Shown: positions 8,469 through 40,859, counted from the first letter of the stretch. The stretch is DNA of 64,000 bases from an uncultured Gemmatimonadota bacterium (GCA_951812955.1 OX638340.1:3616001-3680000); one strand, 5' to 3'. The notes: generated from the letters alone by a model not told the origin. Numbers and translations: made by a program.

Positions 8469-8485
8469 GGAACGAATCCCGATCC

Positions 8486-9726: not shown

Positions 9727-9747
9727 TTACATAACCCGGAGGATTCC

Positions 9748-17019: not shown

Positions 17020-17120
17020 AGGTTGATTCCGGCTCTCATGTGATGCTTGTTCGACCAGCGCAGGGTTTGGCGGATCAACGGCCGGTATGGCCATCGCCCG
17101 GTCCGCGGCGTCCGCTCGAA

Positions 17121-19169: not shown

Positions 19170-19533
19170 TTCGTGATGTCCCTTTGCCGAGTCTGACGTC
19201 GCGGACAATACAGATGCTAAAGGTGTAATGTACAAGGCGTTCTGATTATCGATGTCAGGAGTACGAATGCTCCTGCAATGGTACAGAGGCTACCGGTACC
19301 GTGTCAAGCAGGAATGAACCGTCTTTTTTGAAGGTGGTTTCGGCATGGAAGCCGCTGGTCTTGACAGCGTCCGGCACGCCGCTTAAGTTGCCTTCTGACG
19401 GTCATCGAAATGCGATCATCCAGGTCATTCAGTTCATTCCGACCAGCTGAACAGCGTGCGCAATTCGGGCAGAAACTTCCGGTCCGTCGATTTCCCGTTA
19501 CCAATTTCGATTCTCAGTTTAAAGGTATTCTAT

Positions 19534-20283
19534 ATGTCCCACGCGCAACCCCTGAATGCCCAGCAGATCGCCTACTTCAAGCTAAACGGCTACCTGGTCC
19601 TGAAGAACGTTTTCGACGAGGGAACCCTGGAGGCATGGCGGCGGCAGATCTGGCGGGCGCTCGATGGCTGCCTCGAAGATCCCGCGACCTGGCCCAGGGA
19701 AACGAGCGGTCTAGACGGGTACGATTACGATCCGCCCGAATCGGCCCTTGTGCACCATCCACAGATGATGGCGATCATCGACCAGCTCAGCGGGGGAACT
19801 TTCGTCGCTGGCGACGGCATTCCGATCATTCGGTGGCCCGATCCAGGAAAGTCCTGGGAAATGCCCCAAACGGGACATATCGATGCCTACGGGGGACGCT
19901 GGCTGCCCTTCATGATCGGCGCGACGACCTACCTGTACGACGTGGAACCCGGCGGCGGAGCCTTGATCTACTGGCCGGGAAGCCACCACGCCGCTCACCG
20001 GTACTTTCTCGAGCATCCCTCGCATGTCGACGGCAGCTTCCTGGAGATCGAGGGGTTTTCGTGGGACGTGTTCTGCGACAACCCGGCCACCGGCGGCCAG
20101 GAGTTTACCGCGAAGGCCGGCGACGTGGTGCTCTGGCATGCCTACCTGACCCACAACGGATCGGAAAATACCAGTCATTCGCCGCGCTTCGCCCTCTTCG
20201 CACGCTGGAACCATGAGAAACACCTGGAGCAGTCCTTCAGATACGAGATCCCCGAGGATCTGTGGAAGTATTGGGCGGTGTGA
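19534..20283 (+). CDS. PhyH-family dioxygenase (paralog 4)
   Basis: Start at MSHAQPLNAQQIAYFKLNGYLVLKNVF… (typical PhyH N-terminus); TGHIDAY HxD motif. Confidence 0.8.
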   Translation: MSHAQPLNAQQIAYFKLNGYLVLKNVFDEGTLEAWRRQIWRALDGCLEDPATWPRETSGLDGYDYDPPESALVHHPQMMAIIDQLSGGTFVAGDGIPIIRWPDPGKSWEMPQTGHIDAYGGRWLPFMIGATTYLYDVEPGGGALIYWPGSHHAAHRYFLEHPSHVDGSFLEIEGFSWDVFCDNPATGGQEFTAKAGDVVLWHAYLTHNGSENTSHSPRFALFARWNHEKHLEQSFRYEIPEDLWKYWAV

Positions 20284-20452: not shown

Positions 20453-20863
20453 ATGAGCTCAGTACCGGAACCGGATCAAGAGGAAGATCTTATGGGGAAA
20501 ATCATGAATGATTCCGCGAGCGTATCCGTTTTCGAGGTCGTTGGCAACGCTCTTTGCGTTGCTTCCGACGACGGCCAGAGAGTACACGACCGACTTTCGA
20601 CTGCATTGAAGGATAGCCGCCATGTGAATCTTTCTTTTCGCAACGTGACATCGCTTACTTCGGCTTTTCTGAACACCGCGGTCGGCCAATTGTATGGAAC
20701 CTTCAGCGAAGATCATATACGTACGCAGTTGAACATCGAAGAAATGTCCCTGGATGATCTGGTGTTACTCGAGCGTGTGGTCGACACAGCGAAGCAATAC
20801 TTCAAAGACCCTCAAAGATTCGAACAAGCGCTTCGTGAGGAAATGGATGACTATGACGACTGA
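20453..20863 (+). CDS. STAS-like small protein (DUF4325-like), in a low-GC patch
   Basis: 136 aa. …HVNLSFRNVTSLTSAFLNTAVGQLYGTF… resembles the DUF4325/STAS-like consensus. Lower GC than flanks. The 3' end overlaps the next gene's start. Confidence 0.5.
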   Translation: MSSVPEPDQEEDLMGKIMNDSASVSVFEVVGNALCVASDDGQRVHDRLSTALKDSRHVNLSFRNVTSLTSAFLNTAVGQLYGTFSEDHIRTQLNIEEMSLDDLVLLERVVDTAKQYFKDPQRFEQALREEMDDYDD

Positions 20864-21395
20864 TTCCAAGGCGCTCGCGGTGAATGAACACGAATTCAGT
20901 CGTAGAGATAGGTTGTTTCTTGATACTAATATCTGGTTGTATCTATTCGGTCCGCATAAACCCAAGGCAAGAGCGATCGACACGTATTCAAGTGTGCTTA
21001 AGCGGATTCTGGATGCGGGTAGCAGAATCTATATCGACGTTCTGATCGTTTCAGAGTTCATCAACGCATGCGCCAGGTTGAATTGGCATCTTGCAACAAA
21101 CAGGAAAATTGGTTTCAAAGCATTTCGAAATTCGTCATCTTTCAAATCAGTCGCCAGGTCGGTGTCAAGCGACGCCGCGCGGGTTATGTCCCACTGCTTG
21201 CGTGTGGAAAGTGGATTCTCGGACATGGCCGCGACCGAATTGCTCAATGAATTTGTCACCGGAAAATGCGACTTCAACGATCAAGTTATCATAAGACTCT
21301 GTAAAAAAGAAGAACTAACCCTGATTACACACGACGCCGATTTCAAAGGCGCGGGGATTCCGATTTTGACAGCGAACCATCGTCTTCTGAACTAA
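20847..21395 (+). CDS. PIN-domain protein (VapC-like ribonuclease fold)
   Basis: LFLDTNIWLYLF (Asp-1 motif), YIDVLIVSEFINACAR (Glu motif), LTLITHDADFKG (C-terminal Asp motif). Start MTMTTDSK overlaps the preceding stop. Confidence 0.65.
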   Translation: MTMTTDSKALAVNEHEFSRRDRLFLDTNIWLYLFGPHKPKARAIDTYSSVLKRILDAGSRIYIDVLIVSEFINACARLNWHLATNRKIGFKAFRNSSSFKSVARSVSSDAARVMSHCLRVESGFSDMAATELLNEFVTGKCDFNDQVIIRLCKKEELTLITHDADFKGAGIPILTANHRLLN

Positions 21396-21399: not shown

Positions 21400-22227
21400 A
21401 TGCCCGCCTACCCCCGCTACCTCACCAAAGCTCAATTGGAGCAGTTCTGGTCCGACGGCTACCTGGTTTTGAAAGGCACGCTGGATCAAGAAGTGGTAGA
21501 AAAAGCCCGCGAATTCCTGCTGGACCTGATCCCGCGGGACCTGGTCATCCCGGACCACTACCACGCGAACCACGGCCGGTTCAAGCCCCACCACCCCGAC
21601 GGGAATGGCAGCTTTTTTGAACCTGCGATGCTGCCCCTGATGCAGAACGAAGCACTTTACGGCGCTGCCGTGGATATACTGGAGACAGAATACATCCGGG
21701 TGTGGGACGGTTCGGCGGGGATAACGCTAAGAAACCGCGCCATGGAAGGACGGCTCCAGAACCTCCACCTCGACGCTGTACCGGGAGGGCCCGAAGACCT
21801 GAATGAGGGGTTCCTTCGCACGGGAATAGGTATCGGCGGATGTTATTACCTGAACAAGGTTGAAGGTGAGGGCGGCGGCATCCACGTGGTTCCCGGCGGG
21901 CCGAACCGGGTGAGGGATATCATGCTTAACGAACCGGACGGTCTGACGCGCAACAACGGCTGGGGTCATATCACCGATTTTTCGTCGTCCATGGAGGTAA
22001 CCGGTGATGCCGGCGATTTCGTGCTGATGCATCACCTGATGCCCCACTCGGCCAGCGCCAATCACAACGCCGCGCCACGGATCGCCCAGTTCACCCGTCT
22101 GCAGGCCCTGACGGACGATGACGCCCGCCTCGCTCCGGGTCCCGACCGACCCCTGGACCCCGCAGCGCTTGGCGCCCTGACACCCCTGGGACGCAAACTG
22201 TTCCGCCTGGCCCCGTGGATCGGGTAA
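21400..22227 (+). CDS. PhyH-family dioxygenase (paralog 5)
   Basis: 275 aa; YLTKAQLEQFWSDGYLVLKG… N-terminus; LHLDAV motif. Confidence 0.8.
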   Translation: MPAYPRYLTKAQLEQFWSDGYLVLKGTLDQEVVEKAREFLLDLIPRDLVIPDHYHANHGRFKPHHPDGNGSFFEPAMLPLMQNEALYGAAVDILETEYIRVWDGSAGITLRNRAMEGRLQNLHLDAVPGGPEDLNEGFLRTGIGIGGCYYLNKVEGEGGGIHVVPGGPNRVRDIMLNEPDGLTRNNGWGHITDFSSSMEVTGDAGDFVLMHHLMPHSASANHNAAPRIAQFTRLQALTDDDARLAPGPDRPLDPAALGALTPLGRKLFRLAPWIG

Positions 22228-22242: not shown

Positions 22243-24216
22243 TTGGAACGGACGTACTCCATGTCCTCTGAACCTCCCCGGTCCCGTGGCCCTTCGGCCA
22301 TATCCCTGCGGGCCGGGATCATCGGGCTCGCGCTCTCCGCCGTGGTGGCTTTCTGGGGCCAGTTCGCCGCCGATCACGCCGGTTACAACTATACCACCTA
22401 CGCCCATATCCCCTCGGCGCTGCTGATCCCCTTCCTGATCCTGATCCTGGGTCCCCACGTCCTGCTCAAGAGGCTGGCGCCCGGGTACGCCCTGACGACT
22501 TCCGAGCTGATCGTGATTTTCGTCATGGGCCTGATCGGTTCGATGGTGCCCGACTGGGGCATGACGAGATACCTGGTCTCCCTCATCACGGGGCCCTTCT
22601 ACCATGCGAGTCCCGAGAACCGCTGGGCGGAGACTTTTTTCGAGACCTTGCCCGGGTGGCTCGTGATCAGCGGCAAGACGGACGCGGTACGGGTTTTCTA
22701 CGAAGGCGCCGCGCCGGGTTACCGGATCCCGTGGATGGCCTGGATCTCGCCCCTGCTGTGGTGGATGTCGTGTTTCGCCGCCCTGATGTGGACGGGCGCA
22801 TGCATCGTGGTCATCCTGCGAAAGCAATGGGTCAGCCACGAAAGGCTGCGCTTTCCCCTGGGGGAGGTATCGCTCAACCTGATGGGCGTGGCGAAGGACC
22901 CGAACGAGCCGCCCATGGTCCGCACGACTGCCTTTCGTATCGGCGCCGGCCTGTCGCTGGCCGTCGTGTGCTGGAACATCGCCTCCTACTGGGACATCGT
23001 TACCCCTATCCCCATCATGGGGCCGGACCTGCTGTATCTGAAGGTCCATCCGTCGATACCGGATCTTCCCATCCGGCTGAATGTCTTCGTACTGTGTTTC
23101 GCTTTCTTCATAAACGCCGAGATCCTGTTCAGCCTGTGTTTCTTCCTGCTCTTCACCACGCTGCAGCGGGGGCTGATGAACATGCTCGGGATCACGGCGG
23201 CCACGACCATGTCTCCTACCGGGCTCGTGGGCACCCAGTCCATCGGTGCCCTGATCGCCCTGGTGGTGTGGGGATTGTGGATGGCCCGTCGTCACCTGGC
23301 CGGTGTGGCCCGGCGGGCGTTTCGAAAGGATCCGTCGATCGATGACAGCAGTGAGTTCTTCTCGTACCGGGTGGCGGTTTTCGGATTGATCTTCGGCATG
23401 CTCTACCTGCTGGCATGGCTTTACAGCATCGGCATGTCGCTGCCCGTCAGCCTTGTCCTCCTGGCCGTACTCTTCATCGTCTACATCGGAATGGCCCGGA
23501 TCGTTGCGGAGGCGGGTCTGGTCGCCATGGACCTGCCGGTAACAGCCAACAACTTCACCGGGGGCATTATCGGCGCCGACAACCTGGACCCGTCCTCGAT
23601 CACCGCTATGGGCATGACGAACGCCTTCGCCCGGAACTGGCGGACCTTTACGATGATCGGGCTGTCTCACGCCGCCTACCTGCAGCGCTGGATGGGGCCG
23701 TCCACCCGGCACCTCTTCCTCTGGATCTGCCTGGCCTTCGCCGTCAGTGTCGTAACTTCCCTCTACTACTACATCAGCGCGGGTTATGCAGTCGGCGCCG
23801 ATAATCTGCTGTCCAAGCCCGGCGACCTCGTACCCTTCTTCTACAACACGATCATGACGTGGAACAGCAGCGCAAGCAGTGTCTCGGAACTGGAACTGAT
23901 CTTCTTCGGGAACGGTATCGTCCTGTACATGCTGATGATCCTCGGACGCTTCATGTTTCTCTGGTGGCCGCTGCATCCCATCGGCCTGGTCGCCGTGGCC
24001 GCGGACACCGTGCGGTTCATGTTCCTACCCTTCCTGCTGGCCTGGCTCGTCCAGGTAATCCTGCTGCGCCTGGGTGGAGGAGCCCTTTACCGCAGAGCGC
24101 AGCCCCTGTTTCTCGGCATCCTGGTTGGATATGTCCTTGGGATGGCCCTCTCATTCCTGGTGGACAGCCTGTGGTTTCCGGCCGCACCGCACCAGTTCGA
24201 ATCCTTTATCAACTGA
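22243..24216 (+). CDS. Large polytopic membrane protein of unknown function (paralog A of 28259..30250)
   Basis: 657 aa with >12 hydrophobic segments. Shares ITGPFYHASPENRWAETFF… and RKQWVSHERLRFPL blocks with the 28259 gene. Confidence 0.7.
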   Translation: MERTYSMSSEPPRSRGPSAISLRAGIIGLALSAVVAFWGQFAADHAGYNYTTYAHIPSALLIPFLILILGPHVLLKRLAPGYALTTSELIVIFVMGLIGSMVPDWGMTRYLVSLITGPFYHASPENRWAETFFETLPGWLVISGKTDAVRVFYEGAAPGYRIPWMAWISPLLWWMSCFAALMWTGACIVVILRKQWVSHERLRFPLGEVSLNLMGVAKDPNEPPMVRTTAFRIGAGLSLAVVCWNIASYWDIVTPIPIMGPDLLYLKVHPSIPDLPIRLNVFVLCFAFFINAEILFSLCFFLLFTTLQRGLMNMLGITAATTMSPTGLVGTQSIGALIALVVWGLWMARRHLAGVARRAFRKDPSIDDSSEFFSYRVAVFGLIFGMLYLLAWLYSIGMSLPVSLVLLAVLFIVYIGMARIVAEAGLVAMDLPVTANNFTGGIIGADNLDPSSITAMGMTNAFARNWRTFTMIGLSHAAYLQRWMGPSTRHLFLWICLAFAVSVVTSLYYYISAGYAVGADNLLSKPGDLVPFFYNTIMTWNSSASSVSELELIFFGNGIVLYMLMILGRFMFLWWPLHPIGLVAVAADTVRFMFLPFLLAWLVQVILLRLGGGALYRRAQPLFLGILVGYVLGMALSFLVDSLWFPAAPHQFESFIN

Positions 24217-24368
24217 GTACTACCCTCATAAACTCACCAGAACACAGGATCGCGGAACCGTAAATGAAGCCCTGATATCGAAACCGTAAAAGAACGTCTG
24301 ACGAAAGTTCGCAATCATCCGAAACGGAAGCGAGACGCAATCATCCGAAACGGAAGCGAGACGCAACC

Positions 24369-25733
24369 ATGGCCACGAAATCCGGACGCCCCAATCTCCT
24401 GTTTATCATGGACGACCAGCACCGGCACGACTACCTGTCCGCGGCGGGAGCGACCTTCGTGCGCACGCCGAACCTGGACTGTTTGGCGGAACGCGGGGTC
24501 CGATTCAGCCAGTGCATAACCAACGCCCCGGTCTGCGCGCCCGCGCGCATCGGCCTGGCCAGCGGCTACCAGCCCGCGCGGCTGGGGTGCCTGGACAACA
24601 ACTGCTACCTGCCCCGCCATATCACGCCCTATTACGTCCGGCTTCGGGACGCGGGATACCGGGTCGGGTGCGTGGGGAAACTCGACCTGGCCAAGCCGGA
24701 TCCCTACAACGGCCGCCACGGCGACCGAGCCCGGGTGTTCGGTTGGGGTTTCACCCATCCCGTGGAATGCGAAGGCAAGATGCACGCGGGCATGGCGGAC
24801 CAGCCGCGGGGACCTTATGGATTCTGGCTTCAGGAGCAGGGACTCTTCGAACGCTTCCGGACGGATTACGCGGCCCGGGGAGCGCGGGGCTGGATCGAGG
24901 GTGCTTCCCATGATTCTATATTGCCTGAGGACGCTTTCGAGGATGCCTACATTGGCCGCCGCGCCGTGGAATGGATGGACACCGTCCCCGACGATTACCC
25001 GTGGCATCTCTTCGTCAGCTTCGTGGGGCCGCACGATCCCTTCGATCCGCCTACGTCATACGCGGAACGATACCGGGGCGCTGCCGTGCCGCCGGCAATA
25101 CGAAGCAACGAAGAGGGGAAGCCGTCCTGGGTCAACGCCCGTCGGCGCGACCTGTCCGAAGATGAAGTGGCAGTTACGCGCCGGCAGTATTGCGCGGTCA
25201 TCGAACTGATCGACGACCAGGTAGGCCGGATCATCGAAGCCGTAGAACGGCGGGGCATGGCGGAGGATACCATCGTCGTGTTCGCCAGCGACCACGGCGA
25301 AATGCTGGGCGACCATGGCCTGTACACCAAATCCGTTCCCTACGAGGTGGCCCTGCGCGTGCCGCTCATTGCCGCTGGACCAGGCATAGCGGGAGGGCGT
25401 ACTTCCGACGCCCTCGTGGAACTGATCGACGTCAATCCGACCCTGTGCGGTCTGGCGGGTCTGCCCGCCCAGGAAGGGCTCGACGCCAGCGACTTCAGCG
25501 CCGTGCTCACCGGGGATCGTTCGACCCACCGCGAGGAAGCGGCCAGCGCGCTTCGCGAATTCCGGCTCGTACGCACGGCGGATCACAAGCTTGTGGTGCA
25601 CCACACGGGTGAAACGGAGCTATACGACCTGAAAAACGATCCTGAAGAGCTTGAAAACGTGGCGGCCGATCGGCCCGATGCGGTCAACGCGCTGCGAAGG
25701 CGTCTGCAGCGGCGATTTCACTTCCCGCCCTAA
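24369..25733 (+). CDS. Sulfatase (formylglycine-dependent, Cys-type), no signal peptide
   Basis: 454 aa; NLLFIMDDQHR…NAPVCAPARIGLASG (C-x-P-x-R motif), followed by a typical sulfatase core. Confidence 0.85.
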   Translation: MATKSGRPNLLFIMDDQHRHDYLSAAGATFVRTPNLDCLAERGVRFSQCITNAPVCAPARIGLASGYQPARLGCLDNNCYLPRHITPYYVRLRDAGYRVGCVGKLDLAKPDPYNGRHGDRARVFGWGFTHPVECEGKMHAGMADQPRGPYGFWLQEQGLFERFRTDYAARGARGWIEGASHDSILPEDAFEDAYIGRRAVEWMDTVPDDYPWHLFVSFVGPHDPFDPPTSYAERYRGAAVPPAIRSNEEGKPSWVNARRRDLSEDEVAVTRRQYCAVIELIDDQVGRIIEAVERRGMAEDTIVVFASDHGEMLGDHGLYTKSVPYEVALRVPLIAAGPGIAGGRTSDALVELIDVNPTLCGLAGLPAQEGLDASDFSAVLTGDRSTHREEAASALREFRLVRTADHKLVVHHTGETELYDLKNDPEELENVAADRPDAVNALRRRLQRRFHFPP

Positions 25734-25787
25734 CGCCGGCGATTTCACTTCCCGCCGTGACCCTCCGTGACCATGCCGGACATGCCG

Positions 25788-26624
25788 TCAAGACCGGCCG
25801 TAAGGCGCGCCATCGGGCGAGGCATGTTGCGGTGAGACGATCTGGCGTCGTTCGGGCGTAAGACGGTCCAGCAGTTCGGGCGAGGGCTGGTACCCGTGGC
25901 GGAAATTGCCCCAGGAAGGTCCGTACCGGTAGACCACGATACGGCGCGTTCCCGCGTTTCGCCGGGTGGCCGAACCGTGGGAGATGCCATCCACGAACAA
26001 CAGGGCGTCGCCGGCCTCCATAAACAGTTCCGCGGAACCGGTAATGCCCTCCACGGAAGCGCCCTTGGGCTTCATGGCGTGCCGGGCGAATTCTGGGTGG
26101 ATGAAGTTGGATTTGTGACTGCCCGGGATGACCATGGTGGCGCCGTCCCCGGGACCGATGTCGGTCAGGGCCATGAGCACATTGACCTGCCCGCACATGA
26201 ACCGGCCGCCGTGGTAGCGGAAGCCGTTGCGCATGATGGGCGGGTATCCCCCGGAATGCAGCCCGATCGCCTCTCCCGGCTCCCGGAAATTTGCGAAGTT
26301 CTCGTCGATGAACAGCGGGCCGTGTGCGTAGTCGAAGGTACCCTCCCCGCCCACGAAATGCTTGACCCGGTCGAACCACGAAGGATGGTCGATCAGGGCT
26401 TCGAACGGGGCGCCCGCTTCGTAAATCTGCTGGAGGTTCAGGCCGTCCACGGTGCCGTAGGTATGGGCGTTGACGAATCCGTGCCATTCGCCCGGCGACA
26501 GGGCCGGGAATTCGTCCAGGGAGGCGTTCAGTTCCGCCACTTCCGCCCTCGACAGGGCCTGCTTCAGATGGAGGAATCCGTTCAGGTCGAAGAGATAGAC
26601 ATCCAGGTCGTCAAGATTGCTCAT
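25788..26624 (-). CDS. PhyH-family dioxygenase (paralog 6)
   Basis: Start at MSNLDDLDVYLFDLNGFLHLKQ (26624); sits between the two sulfatase/membrane-protein pairs. Confidence 0.8.
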   Translation of the reverse strand: MSNLDDLDVYLFDLNGFLHLKQALSRAEVAELNASLDEFPALSPGEWHGFVNAHTYGTVDGLNLQQIYEAGAPFEALIDHPSWFDRVKHFVGGEGTFDYAHGPLFIDENFANFREPGEAIGLHSGGYPPIMRNGFRYHGGRFMCGQVNVLMALTDIGPGDGATMVIPGSHKSNFIHPEFARHAMKPKGASVEGITGSAELFMEAGDALLFVDGISHGSATRRNAGTRRIVVYRYGPSWGNFRHGYQPSPELLDRLTPERRQIVSPQHASPDGAPYGRS

Positions 26625-26808
26625 GGGATTGTACCGTTTCTCCAGGGAAATCCTGTTGATTTGTCCCGCCCGATTCGTTACTCTCTTGATCGGCAATATA
26701 TCTCGCCAACCAGCGATACACAACCCAATTGCACTGGGAACCGCGCGAGACGCCGGCCGGATCCATTCCATCCCGAAATATCCGCGTAGACAGGACGAGG
26801 TAACCTGA

Positions 26809-28182
26809 ATGAAGGCCGTTTCACAGCCCAACGTGCTGATTGTGCTGAGTGATCAACTGCGGCGGCAGGCCCTGTCCACCTACGGCGATCCGAACATCGT
26901 CACGCCTCACGTCGACGACCTGGCCGGCCGGGGTGTTCGATTCGAGAACGCCAGTTCTACCTGTCCCATCTGCGTCCCTTTCCGTTTCACTTTCATGACG
27001 GGGCTGTACGCCCATGACCGGAAGGTACCTGGTATCGAGTACAGGATGTCTCCCGCGGAACGCACCCTGGCCGACGAGTTCAACGAGGCGGGGTACGAAA
27101 CGATCTATACGGGCAAATGGCATCTCGACGGAGGTCACGGCCGCATGGGGTCCGCCCGGCAGTGCGGGCGGATGCCCGTGAAGAAGGCCTACCGGGGCCG
27201 CTGGCAGAAGTGGATGGGTTTCGAACTCAGAAACGGCCCCTTCGATACCTTTTATTTCGAAGACGACGACCCGACGCCAAAACCGGTAGAAGGATACCAG
27301 ACCGACGGGCTTTTCGAGCTCGCCATGGACTACCTCGAGACCCGGGATCCGTCCCGTCCCTTCTGCATGGTGGTTTCCGTCGAGCCGCCCCACGATCCTT
27401 TCGAGGCCCCGGAGGCGATGCAGCGCACCTGGGAGGCGATGGACATCGTGCTTCCGCCCAACGTCGACGCGGCCGACGCCGAGGCCATGGAACGGATCAT
27501 GCTCAACCGGAAGCGGTATTACGCCATGGTGGAAAACCTGGACTGGAACATGGGGCGCCTCGGCGCATTTCTGCTGCGAACCGGCCTCCACGGCGAGACC
27601 GTGGTCGTGTTTCTTTCGGATCACGGAGAACTCGGCGGCGCCCATGGACTCCGGGGAAAGCAGTGGCCTTACGAGGAGTCGACGGGAATCCCCCTGATCG
27701 TGGCGGATCCACGGCACCCGGACCGGGCCGGTGCCTTGATCGAAGATCCGGTCTCCACCGAGGACCTGTTCCCCACCATACTCGGTCTGGCCGGGCTGCG
27801 ACCACGGGACGCCCTTCCCGGCGAAAACCTTGCACCGTTGATACACGGCAACACCGGACGGCTGGAGCGGGAAGGCGTGATGCTCGAGTTCGTGGCTGAA
27901 CTGCGTCAGGGCATGGCCTTCTACGACCAGGTCTGGCGTGGGTACCGATCCGCTCGGTACAAGTATACCGTGTGCGGGGACAACCTCGGCGGCGCCGGGC
28001 CGTGGCAGTTCTTCGATCTGGCGGAGGATCCCTGGGAACAGCGAAATCTCATTGACGATCCCGCTTTCCGGCCGGAGATCACGCGTCACCATGGCCTTCT
28101 CCTGGACAGGATGAAGGAGACCGACGACCACTTCGTACTCCTACCCGCCTTCGGAATGGAAGGATTGAATACCTGGGATTGA
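26809..28182 (+). CDS. Sulfatase (Cys-type), no signal peptide
   Basis: 457 aa; NVLIVLSDQLR…STCPICVPFRFTFMTG (C-x-P-x-R). Confidence 0.85.
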   Translation: MKAVSQPNVLIVLSDQLRRQALSTYGDPNIVTPHVDDLAGRGVRFENASSTCPICVPFRFTFMTGLYAHDRKVPGIEYRMSPAERTLADEFNEAGYETIYTGKWHLDGGHGRMGSARQCGRMPVKKAYRGRWQKWMGFELRNGPFDTFYFEDDDPTPKPVEGYQTDGLFELAMDYLETRDPSRPFCMVVSVEPPHDPFEAPEAMQRTWEAMDIVLPPNVDAADAEAMERIMLNRKRYYAMVENLDWNMGRLGAFLLRTGLHGETVVVFLSDHGELGGAHGLRGKQWPYEESTGIPLIVADPRHPDRAGALIEDPVSTEDLFPTILGLAGLRPRDALPGENLAPLIHGNTGRLEREGVMLEFVAELRQGMAFYDQVWRGYRSARYKYTVCGDNLGGAGPWQFFDLAEDPWEQRNLIDDPAFRPEITRHHGLLLDRMKETDDHFVLLPAFGMEGLNTWD

Positions 28183-28258
28183 ACCCCGCGATCCTCGCTA
28201 AGCACCGCACAGGATCCGTCGGCGGCTGTGTCTGAATCCAGAGGAAATCGAAGCATAC

Positions 28259-30250
28259 ATGTCCCAAACCAGCGAGACGACGCCACAGACCGGCGAAACC
28301 GGAAGCGGTGGCGCGGCTAAAACACTGACGACCGGTCTCACCCGCAGGGCCCTGCTGATCGGCATCTTTCTGTCTGTCCTGCTGAACATCTGGACGATTC
28401 ACGCGGGCTACATCAGCCAGTCGTCGTTCATCAGCCTGACCCACCTGCCCGTTTCCGCCCTGTTCCCCTTCCTGCTGGTGCTGCTGGGGCTCAATCCGCT
28501 GTTGAAAGTCTTCTGGCCGTCCAGGGTACTGCACCGCAATGAACTGATAATCGTGTTCTTCCTGGTCTTTACCGCGTCGACCATTCCCGCGTGGCCCTTC
28601 AGTTCCTACTGGATCAGCGGTATCACGGGGCCGTACTATAACGCCACCACGGAGAACCAGTGGGCGGAGCTCTTCTTCCAGTATCTGCCCTCCTGGCTGA
28701 TCGTCCAGGACGAGCAGCGCGCCCTCTCGTGGTTTTTCGAAGGCATCCCTGACAGCCGCCCCCCGGTCTTCGGCATCATTCGCAATGCCTGGACCGTACC
28801 GATGTTCTGGTGGGTCACCTTCTTCCTCGCCATCTTCGTGGTCGGCGCGTCGGCCATGGTCATGCTTCGCAAACAGTGGGTGGAACACGAGCGGCTGTCC
28901 TTCCCGCTCGCCCAGATTCCGCTGATCCTGGTCGAAGAGGAGAAGGGCCGCGCGTTGCCCGCCGTGATGCAATCGAAGCTGTTCTGGTACGCTTTCGGCA
29001 TCACGTTGTTTATTTTCCTCTGGAACATCGTCGGTTTCTTCAACTGGGTCAGCGCCATCCCCATTGGGCCGCTGCACAACTTCCCCGTTGTGATCGCCCG
29101 GGCGTTTCCCGCTATTCCCGTCAAGTTCAATTTCCTGGTTGCGGGCGTTGGATACTTCACGAACCTGAACGTCCTTTTCAGCATATGGGTGTTCTTCGTC
29201 ATCATGACCATTCAGCAGGGCATCATGACCCGCCTCGGCGTGCCCAATGCCTTCGCGGTCGTCAAGTCGCAGCATTCCGGCGGGTTTCTCGTGTTTGCTC
29301 TGTACGCTTTGTGGGCGGCGCGGCGGCACCTGAAGGACGTCGTGATGAAAGCACTGGGCAAGGCGCCCCACGTGGATGATTCGAAGGAGTTCTTTTCCTA
29401 CCGGATGGCCGCGCTGGGCGTCCTGGGTGGCGTTACCTACATCGTGTGCTGGCTTTATGCCACGGGCATGTCCCTCGGAATCATCGCCTTCATGATGGGG
29501 TCGTTGCTGATCATGTTCGTGGGCGTGACGCGCATCGTGGCGGAAACGGGCATCGTGTTCCTTGACCTGCCCTTCGAGACCCACGACTTCACGGTGGCCG
29601 TCATCGGTTCGGGGAGTATCAGTACGCGGGATCTGACAAACCTCGCCATAGCCAATTCCTACGCCCGCAACTGGCGGACGCTCGGCATGTGTTCCATGGG
29701 GCATATCGCCAAGGTCGACGACGAGATGGGCGGTACGGGTAAAGGATCCTTCAAGACGATCACGGCCGTTCTCGCCCTGAGTATAGTCGTGTCGTTGATA
29801 TTCACGATTTACCTGGGATATAACCACGGAGGGGCTTCGCAGTTCTTCGAGCCTGCGTTCACCAACGGGACCAAGCTACCTTACGACAACCTGGTCAAAT
29901 GGATCAATAACAGGGAGGCGATCACCGGGACCGAGTTCTGGTTCATGGTCTTCGGAGGTGTGATTACCACACTGCTGATCCAGGCTCACCACCGGTTCAC
30001 CTGGTGGTCGCTGCACCCCATCGGATTCACCGTTGTGCTGACGCCGGGCATGGCCAGTTCGGCTTTCTCGCTGTTTGTGGTCTGGTGCGTGAAGGCCCTG
30101 CTCCTGAAGATCGGGGGCATCCAGCTGTACAGAAAGGCCGTACCCGCTGTCATGGGCATGCTCGTTGCGTTCGTACTTGGCGTGTTTCTTTCGTACGTGG
30201 CCGACGTCGCCTGGTTTCCCAGGGCAGGCCATCCCGTTCAGAACTGGTAA
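28259..30250 (+). CDS. Large polytopic membrane protein of unknown function (paralog B of 22243..24216)
   Basis: 663 aa; ISGITGPYYNATTENQWAELFF… and RKQWVEHERLSFPLAQI align with paralog A. Confidence 0.7.
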   Translation: MSQTSETTPQTGETGSGGAAKTLTTGLTRRALLIGIFLSVLLNIWTIHAGYISQSSFISLTHLPVSALFPFLLVLLGLNPLLKVFWPSRVLHRNELIIVFFLVFTASTIPAWPFSSYWISGITGPYYNATTENQWAELFFQYLPSWLIVQDEQRALSWFFEGIPDSRPPVFGIIRNAWTVPMFWWVTFFLAIFVVGASAMVMLRKQWVEHERLSFPLAQIPLILVEEEKGRALPAVMQSKLFWYAFGITLFIFLWNIVGFFNWVSAIPIGPLHNFPVVIARAFPAIPVKFNFLVAGVGYFTNLNVLFSIWVFFVIMTIQQGIMTRLGVPNAFAVVKSQHSGGFLVFALYALWAARRHLKDVVMKALGKAPHVDDSKEFFSYRMAALGVLGGVTYIVCWLYATGMSLGIIAFMMGSLLIMFVGVTRIVAETGIVFLDLPFETHDFTVAVIGSGSISTRDLTNLAIANSYARNWRTLGMCSMGHIAKVDDEMGGTGKGSFKTITAVLALSIVVSLIFTIYLGYNHGGASQFFEPAFTNGTKLPYDNLVKWINNREAITGTEFWFMVFGGVITTLLIQAHHRFTWWSLHPIGFTVVLTPGMASSAFSLFVVWCVKALLLKIGGIQLYRKAVPAVMGMLVAFVLGVFLSYVADVAWFPRAGHPVQNW

Positions 30251-30298
30251 TCTTGCTGCGTCCTGCTGATCTCCAGCAGGCGCGTGGGAGCGTTGAAA

Positions 30299-30688
30299 AT
30301 GTCGGAAGAACAGGATCCCCAGGAAATACTCGACCGCATCCTGGAAAACGACGGCCGATATCCCAGGAGGGCCTACCTCTTCGTCCTTGAGGCGGTTTCG
30401 TATACGGTGGAGAAACTGTCAGAACGCAGGCACATATCGGGGAAGGAACTTTCCATGGGCATCAGGGATCTCGCCCTCGAAAGGTTCGGCATCGCGGCGA
30501 AACTGGTGTTCGAAGAGTGGAACCTCACCAGAACCCGTCACTTCGGCGACATCGTCTTCAATCTGGTCAACGAGGGGTTACTGCGGAAAACCGAAGAGGA
30601 CGACATCGAGGATTTCGACGAGGTGTTCGACTTCACCACCGCGTTCGAAACCGAGTTCCGGATCACCGTGGAATCGAAGGACGGCTGA
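30299..30688 (+). CDS. Conserved hypothetical small acidic protein
   Basis: ~130 aa (MSEEQDPQEILDRILENDGRYPRRAYLFVLEAV…); no catalytic motifs. Confidence 0.45.
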   Translation: MSEEQDPQEILDRILENDGRYPRRAYLFVLEAVSYTVEKLSERRHISGKELSMGIRDLALERFGIAAKLVFEEWNLTRTRHFGDIVFNLVNEGLLRKTEEDDIEDFDEVFDFTTAFETEFRITVESKDG

Positions 30689-30797: not shown

Positions 30798-32717
30798 TTA
30801 TGCCCTCCGGACCGTGCGCTGCCGTCTCCCGAAAGTAGGTTTCGGCGCCTGAGTTTGCGATTCGGACCCGCTTTGGGTATTCGAACCTTCGTCCCGGGAA
30901 TCCGAGCTTGTCTCCGATTGAATGGATGGTTCGTTCACGGCTTCGGGCTTGTCTCCGGCAGCCTTCGCGGTCCTGGATCCGGGCTTGTCTCCGGCAGCCT
31001 TCCTGGTCCTGGATCCGGGCTTGTTTCCGGCAGCCTTCCTGGTCCTGGATCTGGGCTTGTTTACGGTCGCCTTCACGTCCTTGGTCTCGGGTTCATCTCC
31101 GGCAGCCTTTGCGTCCTTAGCCTCGGGCTCGTTTTCGGCAATCTTCACGGCCTTGGTCTCGGGTTCATCTCCGGCAGCCTTTGCGTCCTTGGCCTCGGGC
31201 TCATTTCCGGCAGCCTTCGCGGTCTTGGTTTCGGACTCATTTCCGGCAGTCTTAGCGGTCTTGGTTTCAGACTCATTGGCCACCGCGGTCTCACCGCCGG
31301 ATTCCTCGGCGGTTTCAGCAATGACTGGTTGCGTTTCCACAGTTTCCGGCGAATCGTCCTTTTTCGGTGCAGCATCCTTGCCTCTTCGGGTTCTGCCGGT
31401 CCTGCTCCCTTGACCGTTACCTCTGGAGGCGCGGCTTTTCTTACCGTCGCCTTTTTCCCCGGCCGCGGATGTGTCGCGGTCGCTTCCATCATCGGGCGTG
31501 AGGGCTTTCTCTTCCTGCTGTACGGTTTCATCCTGCGTGTTCGTTTCGTCGGCCGCGGAGGAAGGTGCACCGTTCGTCTGCTGTCGCGTGCCGCGCCGGC
31601 CTCCTGACTGTCGGGGCTTGCCCGATGAGCGCTTTGAACGGCTCGTGCCGGATCTCGCGGATGAACGGGAAGCGGACGGTTTCGCTTCGGCCGCCACCGT
31701 CTCGTCGCCGGTGTCTCCGTTGGCCGCGGGGGGCAGGGAACGGAAGTTGAGCCGGCCGGAAGCGGTCGGCACGGATTTAAGCTTGTTGATCAGTCGCTTC
31801 GGAAAGACCATGCGGGCCGTGATCAGCGGATTCCCCCACTGGCTGACGCGGAGTCCGCCCCCCAGGCTGACCAGGGCGTAGGCCGTATCGTAATCCAGTC
31901 CCTTGTCCTGCGAGATCCATTTCACCATCTCGGTGATCGCCAGTCTGGCAGCCTGGTCGACCGAGGACGCGGAAGTAATGGTGACCCATTCGCCCTTCGA
32001 TTCGACCCGGGGCCAGGAAAACCGGCCGCCGGGTTGCGTGTCCACCCGGAGCGTGACCTCGGCCGCGACTTCCACGCCCGATCCGGAAATCTGTCCGTCG
32101 CCCATGCAGGCCTTTACATCGCCCAGCGACAGCAGGGCGCCGTTGACCTGGACGGGAAGGTAGACCCTGGACCCGGTCGTGATCTCCAATGTGTCCATGT
32201 TGCCGCCGTGTCTGCCGGGGTAGACGGTTTCGATCTCCCCGTGCTTCGTGGCCACGCCAAGGACGCCGATCACCGGGCGCACCGGAAGGGCAAGCCGGTC
32301 GTCCAGCTTGACTTGATTGTCGTCTACTTCCAGGACACGTACATTGTGATTCTGGATGTCCTGCCCGGGGACGCCCGCTTCCGAACGGACGGCGAACACG
32401 CCGGTATCCGACGTTTTGATCTCCTTCACCTGAATGGAAAGCACGTCGCCGATATGGGCTTCTTCTATGCATATGGGACCGGATACGGGAATACCGTCGG
32501 ACTTGTCAACGTCACCATGGGTTCGGGGTTCTTCCGTAAGGAGACCCCGGAAACAGTCCTGTGTTTCCACGACGACGGTCTCACCGCGGTTCACAGTAAT
32601 GGCGGGTGAGACGTTCGGGCCGAATACCTGGTGTAACTGGTCTCTGGTTACCCGTCTGGTCAGGACTGCTTGCTCGTTCTTGGACGTCCGCGACGTCCTG
32701 GATGATCTGCGAAACAA
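30798..32717 (-). CDS. Acetamidase/formamidase (FmdA/AmdA) family enzyme fused to a ~330-aa low-complexity Lys/Ala/Glu/Thr-rich repetitive C-terminal tail
   Basis: N-terminal 300 aa: …VVETQDCFRG…GPICIEEAHIGDVLSI…GGNMDTLEITTGSRVYLPV…SLGDVKACMGDGQISGSGVE. C-terminal tail carries tandem repeats (…PETKAVKIAENEPEAKDAKAAGDEPETK…; …KPGSRTRKAAGDKPGSRTAKAAGDKPEA…). Confidence 0.7.
   Translation of the reverse strand: MFRRSSRTSRTSKNEQAVLTRRVTRDQLHQVFGPNVSPAITVNRGETVVVETQDCFRGLLTEEPRTHGDVDKSDGIPVSGPICIEEAHIGDVLSIQVKEIKTSDTGVFAVRSEAGVPGQDIQNHNVRVLEVDDNQVKLDDRLALPVRPVIGVLGVATKHGEIETVYPGRHGGNMDTLEITTGSRVYLPVQVNGALLSLGDVKACMGDGQISGSGVEVAAEVTLRVDTQPGGRFSWPRVESKGEWVTITSASSVDQAARLAITEMVKWISQDKGLDYDTAYALVSLGGGLRVSQWGNPLITARMVFPKRLINKLKSVPTASGRLNFRSLPPAANGDTGDETVAAEAKPSASRSSARSGTSRSKRSSGKPRQSGGRRGTRQQTNGAPSSAADETNTQDETVQQEEKALTPDDGSDRDTSAAGEKGDGKKSRASRGNGQGSRTGRTRRGKDAAPKKDDSPETVETQPVIAETAEESGGETAVANESETKTAKTAGNESETKTAKAAGNEPEAKDAKAAGDEPETKAVKIAENEPEAKDAKAAGDEPETKDVKATVNKPRSRTRKAAGNKPGSRTRKAAGDKPGSRTAKAAGDKPEAVNEPSIQSETSSDSRDEGSNTQSGSESQTQAPKPTFGRRQRTVRRA
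30944..31270. repeat. Imperfect 33-36 bp in-frame tandem repeats (~9 units) encoding the repetitive tail of the acetamidase gene
   Basis: Repeats of gggcttgtctccggcagccttcctggtcctggatcc and related gggttcatctccggcagcctttgcgtccttggcctc units. Confidence 0.7.
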
Positions 32718-32765: not shown

Positions 32766-33785
32766 TCAACCGAAGAGCTCATCTCCATATGCGAATATGG
32801 CGGGCGTACCTCCCGTGTGCAGGAAGACGATGGTGTCGTCTGGCTGGAAGCGCCCTTCCCTGATGTGTATGGCCAGGCCGTCCATGGCCTTGGCCGTGTA
32901 TACCGGGTCGAGTACGATGCCCTCGGTCCGCGCCACCAGGCGCATGGTCTCGAGGCTGGTGCGCGACGGTTCGCCGAAATCCGGTTTGGCGTATTCGCAC
33001 GTGACATCGAAATCTTCCGGCGTGAACGTTTGTTTCAGTCCGATGACCGAGGCGCATTCGTTGGCCACGGGTGCGAGACGTTCCTGCATTTCCCGGTCGT
33101 CCCCCACCCAGTAGTTGAGCCCGACGGCCTTGAAGCAGGCGGATACGGCGCGCAGTCCGACCACCAGGCCGACGATGGTATAGGTCATGGAACTCGTGTA
33201 GATTGCCTTGGGCGCAATGCCCCGCTGTGCCAGTTGCTCGCACAGTTCCAGGGTGGCGTCCACATAGGCCACGGCGCGCAGGATCGCACCGTCGCTGCTC
33301 GTGTCGTAGGGTTTCGATCCCTTTGTTTCCAGCTCCTTCATCTGCTTTTTCAACTCGTCCTTCACGGTCAGGGGAAAGACGTACTTGATCTGGTCCGCCA
33401 TGAGGTGGTTGAGCAGCAGGTTGCCGGAAACGGGGTAGGATCTATGGTCCCGCGGGATGACCACGATGGACTTCATGCCGAGCCGTGCGGCGGCGGCAGC
33501 GGTCTGCGCGGACTGGTTGGACTGGGAATCGGACCCGTGGAGCAGGCAGTCGCAACCCCTGTCGAGGGCTGGACCCAGCGAGTAGGTGAACTGGCGGGCC
33601 TTGTTTCCGCCCATGGCCAGTCCGGTCATGTCATCGCGTTTGACGAGAATTCGGGGGCCCCCAAGGGCTTTCCCGAGGCGAGGACAGTCCTGTAGCGGAG
33701 TGGGCAGGTGGGCCACCGGCGCTCGGGTGAACCTGCCCAGCAGGTGACGCAGTTTCTGCGCGGCGTCACGGTCGTACAACTTCAA
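32766..33785 (-). CDS. PLP-dependent ACC deaminase / D-cysteine desulfhydrase family enzyme
   Basis: 339 aa; …KRDDMTGLAMGGNKARQF… (PLP-Lys region) and C-terminal FLHTGGTPA (TGGT motif). Confidence 0.75.
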   Translation of the reverse strand: MKLYDRDAAQKLRHLLGRFTRAPVAHLPTPLQDCPRLGKALGGPRILVKRDDMTGLAMGGNKARQFTYSLGPALDRGCDCLLHGSDSQSNQSAQTAAAAARLGMKSIVVIPRDHRSYPVSGNLLLNHLMADQIKYVFPLTVKDELKKQMKELETKGSKPYDTSSDGAILRAVAYVDATLELCEQLAQRGIAPKAIYTSSMTYTIVGLVVGLRAVSACFKAVGLNYWVGDDREMQERLAPVANECASVIGLKQTFTPEDFDVTCEYAKPDFGEPSRTSLETMRLVARTEGIVLDPVYTAKAMDGLAIHIREGRFQPDDTIVFLHTGGTPAIFAYGDELFG

Positions 33786-35618: not shown

Positions 35619-35958
35619 TGATCTTATCCTCTGTTCCGCTGTTAGGTACTTAGGGAAGCTTCGAGTTTGATGCGAACTTCGGAGTTTACTACACTTCACC
35701 ACTGGATTTCATGCCTGCCCTTCACACTCGCCTGGAAAGCAGGCACAGGCAATTAAGGCGGGGTTCCCGGTCAAGTCAAGGTCTATATGTTCTAATTTGC
35801 CGAAGAACGATCACTATAAATGTACGCCGTACTGCCTTTTTGCCTTCAGTTTTTCTCTGTTGATCGGCCCGGCTCACCATCGTATATTCGAACGATGTTT
35901 CAAACACAGAAAAACGACGGCTGAACTCATCCGCGAGACCCATCCACAGGTGCCCTTC

Positions 35959-37104: not shown

Positions 37105-37150
37105 GCTGCCGGCCTTGACTGAACTGCCGGTCTGGACTGCCGGCCTGGAC
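37087..37150. repeat. Short degenerate tandem repeat (ctgccggccttgactga x2 plus 2 partial units) at the 3' end of the aminotransferase gene
   Basis: ctggccggccttgactgagctgccggccttgactgaactgccggtctggactgccggcctggac. Confidence 0.5.
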
Positions 37151-37237
37151 CGACCTCTGGGGCCTGGAAAGAATGCCTCTGGTCGGCTTGTACTGATTCT
37201 ACTTCAATCTCCACCGACGATTCGGGAGAAACCGATC

Positions 37238-40680: not shown

Positions 40681-40859
40681 TGGGCTGACAGATTATGGAG
40701 TAATAGAAATCATTCTGTATTGCCTTGATGTGTTTTTTGTCACCTTCGGGCGATTGTGCGTTATATTCCGGATTGTATTCGTTCCTTCGACCCCTTACAA
40801 GCCCAAAAACAGCGCCAATGCGCGACCAAATACGCGCTGCGCGCTGCGGAGAACTGCCC

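Follow-up and report, generated by a model that had tools for sequence, protein, structure and literature searches.

A conserved locus pairing two putative OPT/YSL-like transporters with cytoplasmic sulfatases around a HygX-like oxygenase in an uncultured Gemmatimonadota bacterium

The sulfatases of PUL-type loci typically reside in the periplasm or are secreted, and they are coupled to SusC/D or TonB uptake. Choline sulfatase is cytoplasmic, and in yidJ–yidK of Escherichia coli a putative sulfatase is paired with a sodium:solute symporter; here, an importer adjoins a cytoplasmic sulfatase, which is the same logic as proposed below. HvYS1 is a proton symporter of the OPT/YSL superfamily. OPT proteins possess 16, occasionally 17, transmembrane segments, and the OPT/YSL substrates characterized comprise peptides and metal chelates but no sulfated sugars (PMC3061005). 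For HygX-type oxygenases, an iron-site motif of the form H-x-G…(E/D)-x3-H has been described (PMC13374393).

The locus described in this article lies in a window of 64 kb, meaning the whole stretch of DNA that was analyzed. It comprises the following features:

21400..22227, plus strand: PhyH-family Fe(II)/2-oxoglutarate oxygenase (PF05721, E 9.1e-07, 29.8 bits vs a cutoff of 22)
22243..24216, plus strand: membrane protein A, DUF6785 + DUF6784, predicted OPT/YSL-like transporter fold
24310..24361, plus strand: perfect tandem repeat (2 x 26 nt) in the intergenic spacer from membrane protein A to sulfatase 1
24369..25733, plus strand: sulfatase 1, cytoplasmic Cys-type (CAPAR) S1-family sulfatase (PF00884, E 5.8e-39)
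25788..26624, minus strand: HygX-like PhyH-family oxygenase (PF05721, E 2.5e-19)
26809..28182, plus strand: sulfatase 2, cytoplasmic Cys-type (CVPFRFTFMTG) S1-family sulfatase of another subfamily (PF00884, E 1.6e-47)
28259..30250, plus strand: membrane protein B, DUF6785 + DUF6784, of another subfamily than A (Pfam E 1.7e-108 and 6.9e-18)
30284..30688, plus strand: Minf_1886-family hypothetical protein (TIGR04138, E 1.9e-39, 134.5 bits vs a cutoff of 60)

The original prediction had placed the two membrane protein and two sulfatase ORFs at these positions and the central PhyH gene on the minus strand, and this placement holds. The true start of membrane protein A is probably the ATG at 22261, giving a protein of 651 aa. 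The upstream PhyH gene, which encodes a canonical H-x-D motif (H-L-D in the alignment), stops 15 bp 5′ of membrane protein A, and transcription unit 1 probably opens with this gene. The ORF of the central PhyH gene reaches 26831, and the gene call in a near-identical contig is 278 aa long, i.e., 25788–26624; it is transcribed toward sulfatase 1 and away from sulfatase 2. The Minf_1886-family gene begins 33 bp 3′ of membrane protein B, and a Pfam scan of its product gave no match. Membrane protein A and sulfatase 1 are 20–152 bp apart across the window and its relatives, and sulfatase 2 and membrane protein B 76 bp. From this gene spacing alone we infer the operon structure; promoter and terminator scans were uninformative. 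The tandem repeat ends 7 nt ahead of the sulfatase 1 ATG and occurs only in the window and in locus L001, the corresponding spacers of the relatives (20–82 bp) being devoid of it. It is a recent microduplication and not a conserved element.

Six related loci (L001 and L006–L010), from genomes of the Latescibacterota/PAUC34f type, retain all seven genes of the block, the Minf_1886-family gene included, intact and in synteny. Block proteins of the window and of these loci are ~80–92% identical. Hence, the co-location of the block genes is not due to chance.

Both sulfatases exhibit intact catalytic motifs of the S1 family. Within the PF00884 domain, the Cys-type motif C/S-x-P-x-R reads CAPAR at residue 56 of sulfatase 1 and CVPFR at residue 55 of sulfatase 2, and the metal-binding residues are represented by the D-Q N-terminal and S-D-H-G-E motifs in both translations. 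As predicted, neither protein carries a signal peptide, since no start codon lies between the preceding stop and the start of either ORF, and the domain begins as early as residue 7–8. That this is unusual, as had also been stated, does not hold for these subfamilies: hundreds of homologs are equally short, and among solved structures the closest are choline sulfatase for sulfatase 1 (6fny, E 1.3e-47) and a YidJ-type putative sulfatase for sulfatase 2 (2qzu, E 1.6e-41). An identity as choline sulfatase (BetC, TIGR03417 equivalog) was rejected at 230.5 and 181.7 bits vs a cutoff of 433.45, and because these scores lie far under the cutoff, the substrates presumably differ from choline sulfate. 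Sulfatase 1 misses the cutoffs of all NCBIfam equivalogs. Distant orthologs of both sulfatases are found in Planctomycetota and Kiritimatiellae, where they adjoin glycoside hydrolases; their neighbors include GH38, rhamnosidase, apiosidase, fucose isomerase, GFO/IDH/MocA, and BNR genes. Pfam scans of ~48 genes and a motif screen found no FGE/anSME maturase in the 64-kb window.

The membrane proteins, which the original prediction could not assign to a family, both consist of Pfam DUF6785 followed by DUF6784 (358.5 and 63.8 bits for A, 363.8 and 65.1 bits for B, at gathering cutoffs of 25 and 26.4; E ~1e-107 and ~1e-17), and each of the 46 aligned homologs is matched by the two HMMs. The family has undergone strong expansion and numbers several paralogs per genome, chiefly in MAGs labeled Latescibacterota or Gemmatimonadota. 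Its membrane-embedded invariant charged residues are E88, R193, R349, E371, R376, R419, E423, D430, R464, and D641. An AF2 model (pLDDT 87.5, pTM 0.88) yields HvYS1 as the single significant Foldseek match (E 6.9e-08, probability 1.0, TM 0.63/0.68) and sole whole-chain structural match, the next match being at E 0.02. The model has the OPT/YSL fold, with core and scaffold domains as in HvYS1. DSSP on the model gives ~14 long helices and four short broken helices at residues 435–483—an approximate count that is compatible with 16—and a strict hydropathy scan gives 13 peaks in A and 11 in B. On the level of sequence, PF03169 (OPT) is seen in one of 46 family members (E 0.68), OPT models of NCBIfam are absent at E ≤ 10, and a profile search against PDB sequences returns no match, so that HvYS1 is not recovered. 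Because this sequence-level link is absent, the transporter assignment is based on one predicted structure compared with one experimental structure. Given the predicted OPT/Yellow-Stripe fold, DUF6785/DUF6784 proteins are most likely proton-coupled, elevator-type secondary importers.

The central PhyH protein contains the iron site H-S-G…D-G-I-S-H with a relocated carboxylate, as in HygX. Its closest solved sequence is HygX itself (4xc9, E 2e-13), and herein its Asp aligns with the HygX Glu. It is the sole one of the 13 PhyH paralogs in the window that lacks H-x-D. The AF2 model of this protein is of moderate quality (pLDDT 65.8).

Across the ~36-kb stretch from ~1.1 to 37.5 kb of the window, which constitutes a dense catabolic island, no polytopic membrane proteins other than A and B are encoded. 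Gene content of the window includes UxuA-like, MR_MLE, HpcH-aldolase, NAGLU-like, and BNR genes, and GGT, amidase, and aminotransferase genes lie just downstream of the block. DUF6785 genes elsewhere are likewise embedded among catabolic enzymes (SDR, GFO/IDH/MocA, xylose-isomerase-like TIM barrel, epimerase, enolase superfamily, and PhyH). Their neighbors within ±2 genes belong to 159 Pfam families, of which PhyH, not sulfatase, is the commonest. Sulfatases account for 0/64 of the immediate neighbors of DUF6785 genes in other orthogroups; outside this block, they occur within five genes in 5/270 cases and further away in 0/136. Within 6 kb of five distant orthologs of sulfatases 1 and 2 (64–69% identity), no DUF6785 gene is present. 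All sulfatase-family genes near DUF6785 genes, at any locus and from at least five subfamilies, lack a signal peptide, and several unrelated DUF6785 subfamilies have unrelated sulfatases of this kind within a few genes. A general pairing of membrane protein and sulfatase across the family is, thus, not supported by these neighbor counts, which give no statistical enrichment of sulfatases. The functional unit postulated earlier is plausible insofar as the block is kept in the six related loci, but not as a family-wide pairing. A pairing not conserved was one of two findings said in advance to speak against that unit; the other was membership of a well-characterized family unrelated to sulfatases, whereas DUF6785/DUF6784 is no well-characterized family unrelated to uptake.

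For the block, a lineage-specific role in the import and desulfation of small sulfated compounds is most likely. Specifically, we lean with moderate confidence toward two side-by-side uptake and desulfation modules, which would have been assembled in one lineage and not by duplication. Unit 1 would run from the upstream PhyH gene via membrane protein A to sulfatase 1, and unit 2 from sulfatase 2 via membrane protein B to the Minf_1886-family gene, with the HygX-like Fe(II)/2-oxoglutarate oxygenase lying divergently between the units. Each importer would serve a substrate of its own, a small sulfated organic compound, and deliver it to the cytoplasm, where the adjoining signal-peptide-free formylglycine sulfatase, if functionally coupled to it, would cleave the sulfate ester. 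The carbon skeleton would then be handled by PhyH-type oxygenases together with the cupin, enolase-superfamily, dehydratase, and aldolase enzymes nearby. Import followed by cytoplasmic desulfation had already been suggested for the locus, and it is reasonable for this lineage because of the predicted transporter fold, the absence of other polytopic proteins, the signal-peptide-free sulfatases, and the conserved block; it is not a property of the family. As a best guess, the substrate might be a sulfated sugar or sugar-derived metabolite, since the sulfatase orthologs adjoin sugar genes, the window has UxuA-like and related genes, and HygX, to which the central oxygenase is closest, oxidizes a sugar moiety.

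Other explanations of the arrangement were considered. The original prediction had read it as a mirror-image duplication of an ancestral membrane protein and sulfatase pair around the PhyH gene, for which the palindromic gene order and the paralogy of both gene types speak; the ~660-aa membrane proteins are indeed paralogs (BLASTP, 35% identity over 649 aa, E 3e-138). However, all four genes lie on the plus strand, so that the palindrome exists in gene order alone, and a DNA comparison of the block halves yields only short direct matches, in register and spaced ~6035 nt apart, where protein motifs are conserved, and no meaningful inverted arms. Membrane protein A is 45–53% identical to at least nine other orthogroups as opposed to 35% to B, which ranks 17th among 37 orthogroups (the reverse comparison being similar, at ~16th–17th), and the closest orthogroups of B (49–53% identity) are located at other loci. 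The sulfatases, at 28% identity, belong to different subfamilies, are no closer to each other than to unrelated sulfatases at other loci, and score higher against solved sulfatases, different ones for each (166 and 146 bits), than against each other (126 bits). Such a local duplication is extremely improbable, and as a recent event it is refuted. It is also very unlikely that the central H-x-G protein is an Fe(II)/2-oxoglutarate halogenase, with halogenated metabolites being produced or processed by the module. In favor of this, Gly takes the place of the facial triad's acidic ligand, which is also the case in 2-oxoglutarate halogenases, and some MAGs among the relatives bear labels that point to sponge metagenomes, the sponge environment being rich in halometabolites. 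Yet a halogenase lacks the carboxylate and has an open halide site, whereas here a compensating Asp is placed four residues before the distal His, like the Glu of HygX, an oxygenase rather than a halogenase. Among 83 PhyH proteins, covariation is perfect in this respect, with D/E at that position in 10/10 H-x-G vs 2/72 H-x-D proteins, and the neighboring genes are catabolic and not biosynthetic.

Two further alternatives concern the membrane proteins and their partners. Coupling to the sulfatases could be coincidental in a crowded catabolic island, since distant sulfatase orthologs have no DUF6785 neighbors; DUF6785 proteins would then be general importers that bring in sugar acids, amino-acid derivatives, peptides, or similar non-sulfated substrates for the many PhyH, cupin, enolase, and amidohydrolase enzymes of the island, with the sulfatases acting on other compounds. 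This fits the lack of family-wide sulfatase enrichment, the breadth of neighbor families headed by PhyH, the known OPT substrates with the GGT, amidase, and aminotransferase genes just downstream, and the 13 PhyH genes and many catabolic enzymes of the window, which require substrates as well. Against it stand the direct adjacency that occurs twice within one 8-kb block, with short spacers and intact across six related loci, the need of cytoplasmic sulfatases for an importer where other transporters are absent nearby, and the recurrence of unrelated signal-peptide-free sulfatases near unrelated DUF6785 subfamilies, so that we regard coincidence as possible but rather unlikely. Improbable, in turn, is that DUF6785 proteins are exporters of released sulfate or of a product, membrane enzymes, or sensors with an OPT-like architecture. 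Sequence similarity to OPT is absent, and in one locus type a DUF6785 pair adjoins a complete ABC uptake system, next to which a second importer would be redundant. However, the whole chain matches a fold that is known so far solely from an uptake symporter, the genomic contexts are overwhelmingly catabolic, and the proteins are uniformly ~650 aa long, devoid of extra catalytic or sensor domains.

Extending the reading of two uptake and desulfation modules, we tentatively suggest that DUF6785/DUF6784 may be a large unrecognized bacterial branch of the OPT/Yellow-Stripe fold, diversified to many paralogs per genome and serving as a principal organic-solute uptake system of Latescibacterota/PAUC34f-type bacteria. 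The two paralogs of this locus could herein be specialized for two different host- or algal-derived sulfated metabolites that are desulfated in the cytoplasm and oxidized by the HygX-like oxygenase. If true, this would be a catabolic use of relocated-carboxylate oxygenase chemistry, hitherto known from antibiotic biosynthesis only.

Compared with the OPT/YSL superfamily (TC 2.A.67; PF03169; barley HvYS1, PDB 7wsr/7wst), the membrane proteins share the size of ~650–680 aa, long helices and broken-helix hairpins in the model that are compatible with 16 transmembrane segments, and a stand-alone secondary-transporter architecture. Prokaryotic OPT genes, by genome context, also adjoin hydrolases, including a proposed oligosaccharide-uptake subgroup. 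In contrast, DUF6785 and DUF6784 form a separate Pfam pair without detectable sequence similarity, neighbor oxygenases, sugar-type oxidoreductases, and sulfatases instead of peptidases or metal-chelate genes, and belong to a family heavily expanded within genomes. With choline-O-sulfate utilization (BetC) and yidJ–yidK, the locus has in common Cys-type formylglycine sulfatases without signal peptides; however, the putative transporter is OPT-like and not of the BCCT, ABC, or SSS type, and two modules flank a HygX-like oxygenase. PUL-type sulfatase loci of Bacteroidota and of sulfatase-rich Planctomycetota/Kiritimatiellota similarly contain S1 sulfatases among carbohydrate-active and sugar-processing genes, whereas the sulfatases described here are cytoplasmic and the only transporters nearby are the inner-membrane OPT-like proteins. 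The central PhyH protein resembles HygX, the orthoester-forming Fe(II)/2-oxoglutarate oxygenase of hygromycin B (PDB 4xc9/4xca/4xcb), in its PhyH-subfamily fold and in the rare iron site common to both, and HygX is its best PDB sequence match and among its best structural matches. The two differ in that they are only ~20–22% identical, in the Asp that replaces Glu, and in their surroundings, which are catabolic for the central PhyH protein and those of antibiotic biosynthesis for HygX.

The membrane proteins A and B, for which the original prediction could name no family, both match the Pfam domains DUF6785 (E ~1e-107) and, after it, DUF6784 (E ~1e-17). No NCBIfam model was found for either protein, and no mention of DUF6785 or DUF6784 in the literature searched. 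Clustered at 50% identity, the family comprises 6,614 representatives (E ≤ 0.001), or 2,155 with the threshold set to E ≤ 1e-30, and its length is uniform, almost all members having ~650 aa. At least 588 DUF6785 loci were confirmed in a species-level genome collection. Among the matches listed, most lie in MAGs labelled Latescibacterota or Gemmatimonadota, and a few come from Zixibacteria, Planctomycetota, and Desulfobacterales; as read from the MAG labels, the lineages with DUF6785 seem to be uncultured bacteria of marine and sponge-associated habitats. Multiple paralogs occur per genome, some of them in tandem.

A template-free AlphaFold2 (AF2) model of A, calculated from 46 diverse homologs, is confident (pLDDT 87.5, pTM 0.88). 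Its single real PDB match in Foldseek is barley Yellow Stripe 1 (HvYS1), a proton symporter of the OPT/YSL superfamily, with E 6.9e-08, a probability of 1.00, and TM 0.63/0.68; the runner-up has E 0.02. A profile search of PDB sequences with the DUF6785 family gave no matches, PF03169 (OPT) was hit by 1 of 46 members in a Pfam search at E ≤ 10 (E 0.68), and an NCBIfam search at E ≤ 10 returned no OPT model. Since the kinship is invisible to sequence methods, DUF6785/DUF6784 proteins are described herein as OPT/YSL-like in fold and, judging from the model, in probable mechanism, and not as demonstrated members of the OPT family. The novelty lies in the fold-based function assigned to DUF6785/6784 and in a lineage-specific module; that the family exists was already known from its cataloguing as a DUF.

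A and B belong to a block of seven genes, which consists of an upstream PhyH gene, A, sulfatase 1, a central PhyH gene, sulfatase 2, B, and an ORF of the Minf_1886 family. The gene positions originally predicted for A, the sulfatases, and B, and the PhyH gene on the minus strand, are borne out by the ORF list.

Core genes of the block (position in the window, strand, gene, source)
22243-24216, +, membrane protein A, ORF list
24369-25733, +, sulfatase 1, ORF list
25788-26624 (most likely extent), -, central PhyH-family gene of 278 aa, gene called in the near-identical contig
26809-28182, +, sulfatase 2, ORF list
28259-30250, +, membrane protein B, ORF list

GC3 analysis favors the frames of the block over long antisense shadow ORFs, and the true start of A is probably the ATG at 22261. 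Upstream of the sulfatase 1 ATG, and ending 7 nt before it, lies a perfect tandem repeat of 2 x 26 nt (24310-24361); apart from the window, only its nearest relative, the near-identical contig L001, has it, so that the repeat is a recent microduplication. Across the sulfatase 1 stop codon runs another tandem repeat, of 25 nt and with 92% identity (25710-25761). A promoter/terminator scan gave counts no higher than shuffled sequence, and an Rfam scan of the window gave no matches.

The arrangement had been proposed to be a mirror-image duplication of a membrane protein–sulfatase pair. The underlying paralogy of A and B is clear, with 35% identity over 649 residues in BLASTP (E 3e-138), but the duplication itself finds no support. 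A, B, and both sulfatases lie on the same (+) strand, and the palindrome is one of gene order alone. DNA matches between the halves of the block are short, direct, and in-register, lie at conserved protein motifs, and are ~6035 nt apart; no meaningful inverted DNA arms were found between the halves. When 111 DUF6785 genes from 79 loci were clustered at 60% identity, 37 orthogroups resulted. A reaches 45-53% identity with several orthogroups elsewhere, while the group of B ranks only 17th for it; B, in turn, reaches 49-53% with two other groups, and the group of A ranks 16th. The two sulfatases share 28% identity (E 4e-36, 126 bits), which is exceeded by the match of sulfatase 1 to choline sulfatase 6fny (166 bits) and of sulfatase 2 to YidJ-type 2qzu (146 bits); their mutual similarity is no greater than that of either to unrelated sulfatases at other loci. 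Because A and B have closer orthogroups elsewhere and the sulfatases are closer to other solved sulfatases, the block unites members of different subfamilies and is not the product of a pair duplication. Unlike in the window, genuine local duplications of DUF6785 genes occur at other loci. Tandem or convergent pairs are frequent (L035, L036, L076, L078, L084, and L002-type loci), and locus L068 contains a triplet (5907-11950), three copies in a row with 60%+ identity.

The recurring pair of the original prediction is conserved within a close clade but not family-wide. By tblastn, the seven genes are intact and kept in order in L001 and five further loci, each of the five from a different species-representative genome. 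Among these six related loci, block proteins are ~80-92% identical, and A and sulfatase 1 are separated by as little as 20 bp; sulfatase 1 is intact in L007 and L008 (tblastn). Across the family, sulfatases account for 0/64 immediate DUF6785 neighbors (one representative locus per orthogroup, window excluded), 5/270 genes within five genes, and 0/136 further away (window excluded); an enrichment of sulfatases near DUF6785 is not convincing. A Pfam census of the ±2 neighbors of all 37 orthogroups yielded 159 families among 123 proteins, with PhyH as the commonest (7, of which 3 from the window) and sulfatase occurring three times (2 from the window). Other contexts include SDR, GFO/IDH/MocA, xylose-isomerase-like TIM barrel, epimerase, 2-oxoacid:ferredoxin oxidoreductase, luciferase-like monooxygenase, a DMF-amidase-like protein, and an ABC uptake system. 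Functional coupling of membrane protein and sulfatase is favored in this lineage for three reasons: A and B are the sole polytopic membrane proteins of a dense enzyme island from about 1.1 to 37.5 kb, all sulfatase-family genes near DUF6785 genes (at least five unrelated subfamilies) are without signal peptide, and the two gene types directly adjoin each other twice within one conserved block.

Both sulfatases are ordinary S1 enzymes that match PF00884 and SGSH_C in Pfam, and a nucleophile motif of the Cys type lies at residues 55-56 (CAPAR in sulfatase 1, CVPFRFTFMTG in sulfatase 2). Their predicted lack of a signal peptide is confirmed: both ORFs open at the first start codon downstream of an in-frame stop, with residue 7-8 already marking the beginning of the Pfam domain, which leaves no room upstream and makes a signal peptide impossible. 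The subfamilies of both sulfatases are widespread, and members with 64-70% identity are equally short and come from Planctomycetota, Kiritimatiellae, Anaerolineae, and Latescibacterota. No DUF6785 gene lies within 6 kb of five such orthologs, which neighbor GH38, rhamnosidase, apiosidase, fucose isomerase, GFO/IDH/MocA, BNR, and 2-hydroxyacid dehydrogenase genes. Pfam scans found no FGE or anSME maturase in the 64-kb window, and a crude supplementary regex screen of the window for FGE and radical-SAM motifs returned nothing. The sulfatase-family protein at L048:17328-18776 and its orthologs in L052, L054, L056, L057, and L059 lie five genes from a DUF6785 gene and are without any C/S-x-P-x-R nucleophile motif; such proteins may be non-formylglycine members of the alkaline-phosphatase superfamily.

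The window contains 13 PhyH-family genes, a striking local expansion in which cupins, amidohydrolases, an enolase-superfamily gene, and an aldolase lie among the paralogs; 12 of the 13 have a canonical H-x-D…H triad.

PhyH paralogs besides the central gene, and H-x-G…D/E-x3-H PhyH genes at other DUF6785 loci
12867-13670, PhyH
16216-17094, PhyH
17994-18794, PhyH
19456-20283, PhyH
21400-22227, PhyH
40725-41711, PhyH
44911-45741, PhyH
47376-48209, PhyH
52947-53900, PhyH
53932-54720, PhyH
62196-63002, PhyH
63045-63839, PhyH
L076:6698-7582, H-x-G PhyH
L078:169-1101, H-x-G PhyH
L084:6491-7351, H-x-G PhyH

The other paralogs in the window are 14-23% identical to the central PhyH, the iron site of which reads H-S-G…D-G-I-S-H. 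Among PDB sequences, HygX is the best match to this protein (E 2e-13), whose Asp aligns with the HygX Glu. HygX is the documented example of an H-x-G…E-x3-H site with a relocated carboxylate ligand and oxidizes a sugar moiety of hygromycin (PMC13374393). Covariation is perfect: among 83 PhyH proteins from all retrieved loci, D/E stands four residues before the distal His in 10/10 H-x-G versus 2/72 H-x-D proteins, and the H-x-G variant is confined to the block and a second DUF6785 locus type (L076, L078, L084). In the latter, unrelated loci, it precedes a tandem DUF6785 pair by two genes. An AF2 model of the central PhyH, calculated from the 13 window paralogs, is moderate (pLDDT 65.8); HygX is among its top structural matches, tied with SptF and other oxygenases, which gives no more than soft support. 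A halogenase is unlikely, because the central PhyH has the compensating Asp four residues before the distal His.

The block would comprise two transcription units, PhyH–A–sulfatase 1 and sulfatase 2–B–Minf_1886, with the HygX-like oxygenase gene between them in divergent transcription. Going by the structural model, each unit would combine an OPT-like proton-coupled importer with a cytoplasmic formylglycine sulfatase. A and B would each probably import a distinct small sulfated compound, whose sulfate ester would then be cleaved in the cytoplasm by the sulfatase of the unit. The skeleton would be degraded by the oxygenases and the nearby cupin, enolase-superfamily, UxuA-like, amidohydrolase, and aldolase enzymes. 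Our best guess is a sugar-derived substrate, given the contexts of the sulfatase orthologs, the affinity to HygX, and the NAGLU-like and BNR genes of the window. The NAGLU-like (alpha-N-acetylglucosaminidase) protein (934 aa, 59249-62053, +) and the BNR-repeat protein (54788-55867, -) are consistent with degradation of glycosaminoglycan-like glycans.

In NCBIfam, a PLP enzyme of the window matches D-cysteate sulfo-lyase CuyA best, at 256 bits, which is under the cutoff of 450. The window also encodes a sulfite-oxidase-like molybdopterin oxidoreductase and a gamma-glutamyltranspeptidase (all three jointly 32766-33785, -; 7287-8468, +; 33846-35702, -). Together the three hint at organosulfur metabolism beyond sulfate esters. 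An acetamidase/formamidase-family protein (30798-32717, -) ends in a low-complexity, repeat-rich C-terminal tail of about 300 aa (…ETKTAKAAGNEPE…). PAUC34f and Poribacteria are reported to be relatively enriched in sulfatases, which are associated with utilization of marine sulfated polysaccharides, and in the NIPSNAP domain compared with Latescibacteria (PMC7081726); a NIPSNAP-domain gene (37097-37564, +) fits a PAUC34f-type origin of the window. Immediately upstream of the block, between two PhyH genes, an inserted segment of lower GC (0.53) at 20453-21395 contains a STAS-like DUF4325 gene and one with a PIN domain, where the counterpart in L001 is an AAA_15 ATPase plus a small ORF; this is a variable toxin- or defense-type islet. 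A low-GC (0.50) island at ~2000-6000 contains a CAP12/Pycsar-type TIR effector domain protein (2307-2768, PF10137, E 4e-40) and is probably a mobile defense island.

The structural match suggests a testable function, that of an OPT/YSL-type secondary importer, for a Pfam family of thousands, and the best-conserved DUF6785 neighborhood provides concrete candidate substrates, namely small sulfated compounds. If part of the sulfatases of these organisms is indeed cytoplasmic and supplied by a dedicated importer family, this would alter models of how they turn over sulfated organic matter. A second and lesser lead is the occurrence of a HygX-type oxygenase in a catabolic setting.

The known systems closest to the block are OPT/YSL transporters, pairings of an importer with a cytoplasmic sulfatase, and HygX. 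Compared with OPT/YSL transporters, DUF6785/6784 proteins are alike in fold, whereas they are without sequence similarity and differ in gene context. HygX and the central PhyH both have a relocated-carboxylate iron site, but the context of the central PhyH is catabolic. Choline-O-sulfate utilization is a system of an importer and a cytoplasmic sulfatase; in contrast to it, both sulfatases of the block score well under the choline-sulfatase equivalog cutoff.
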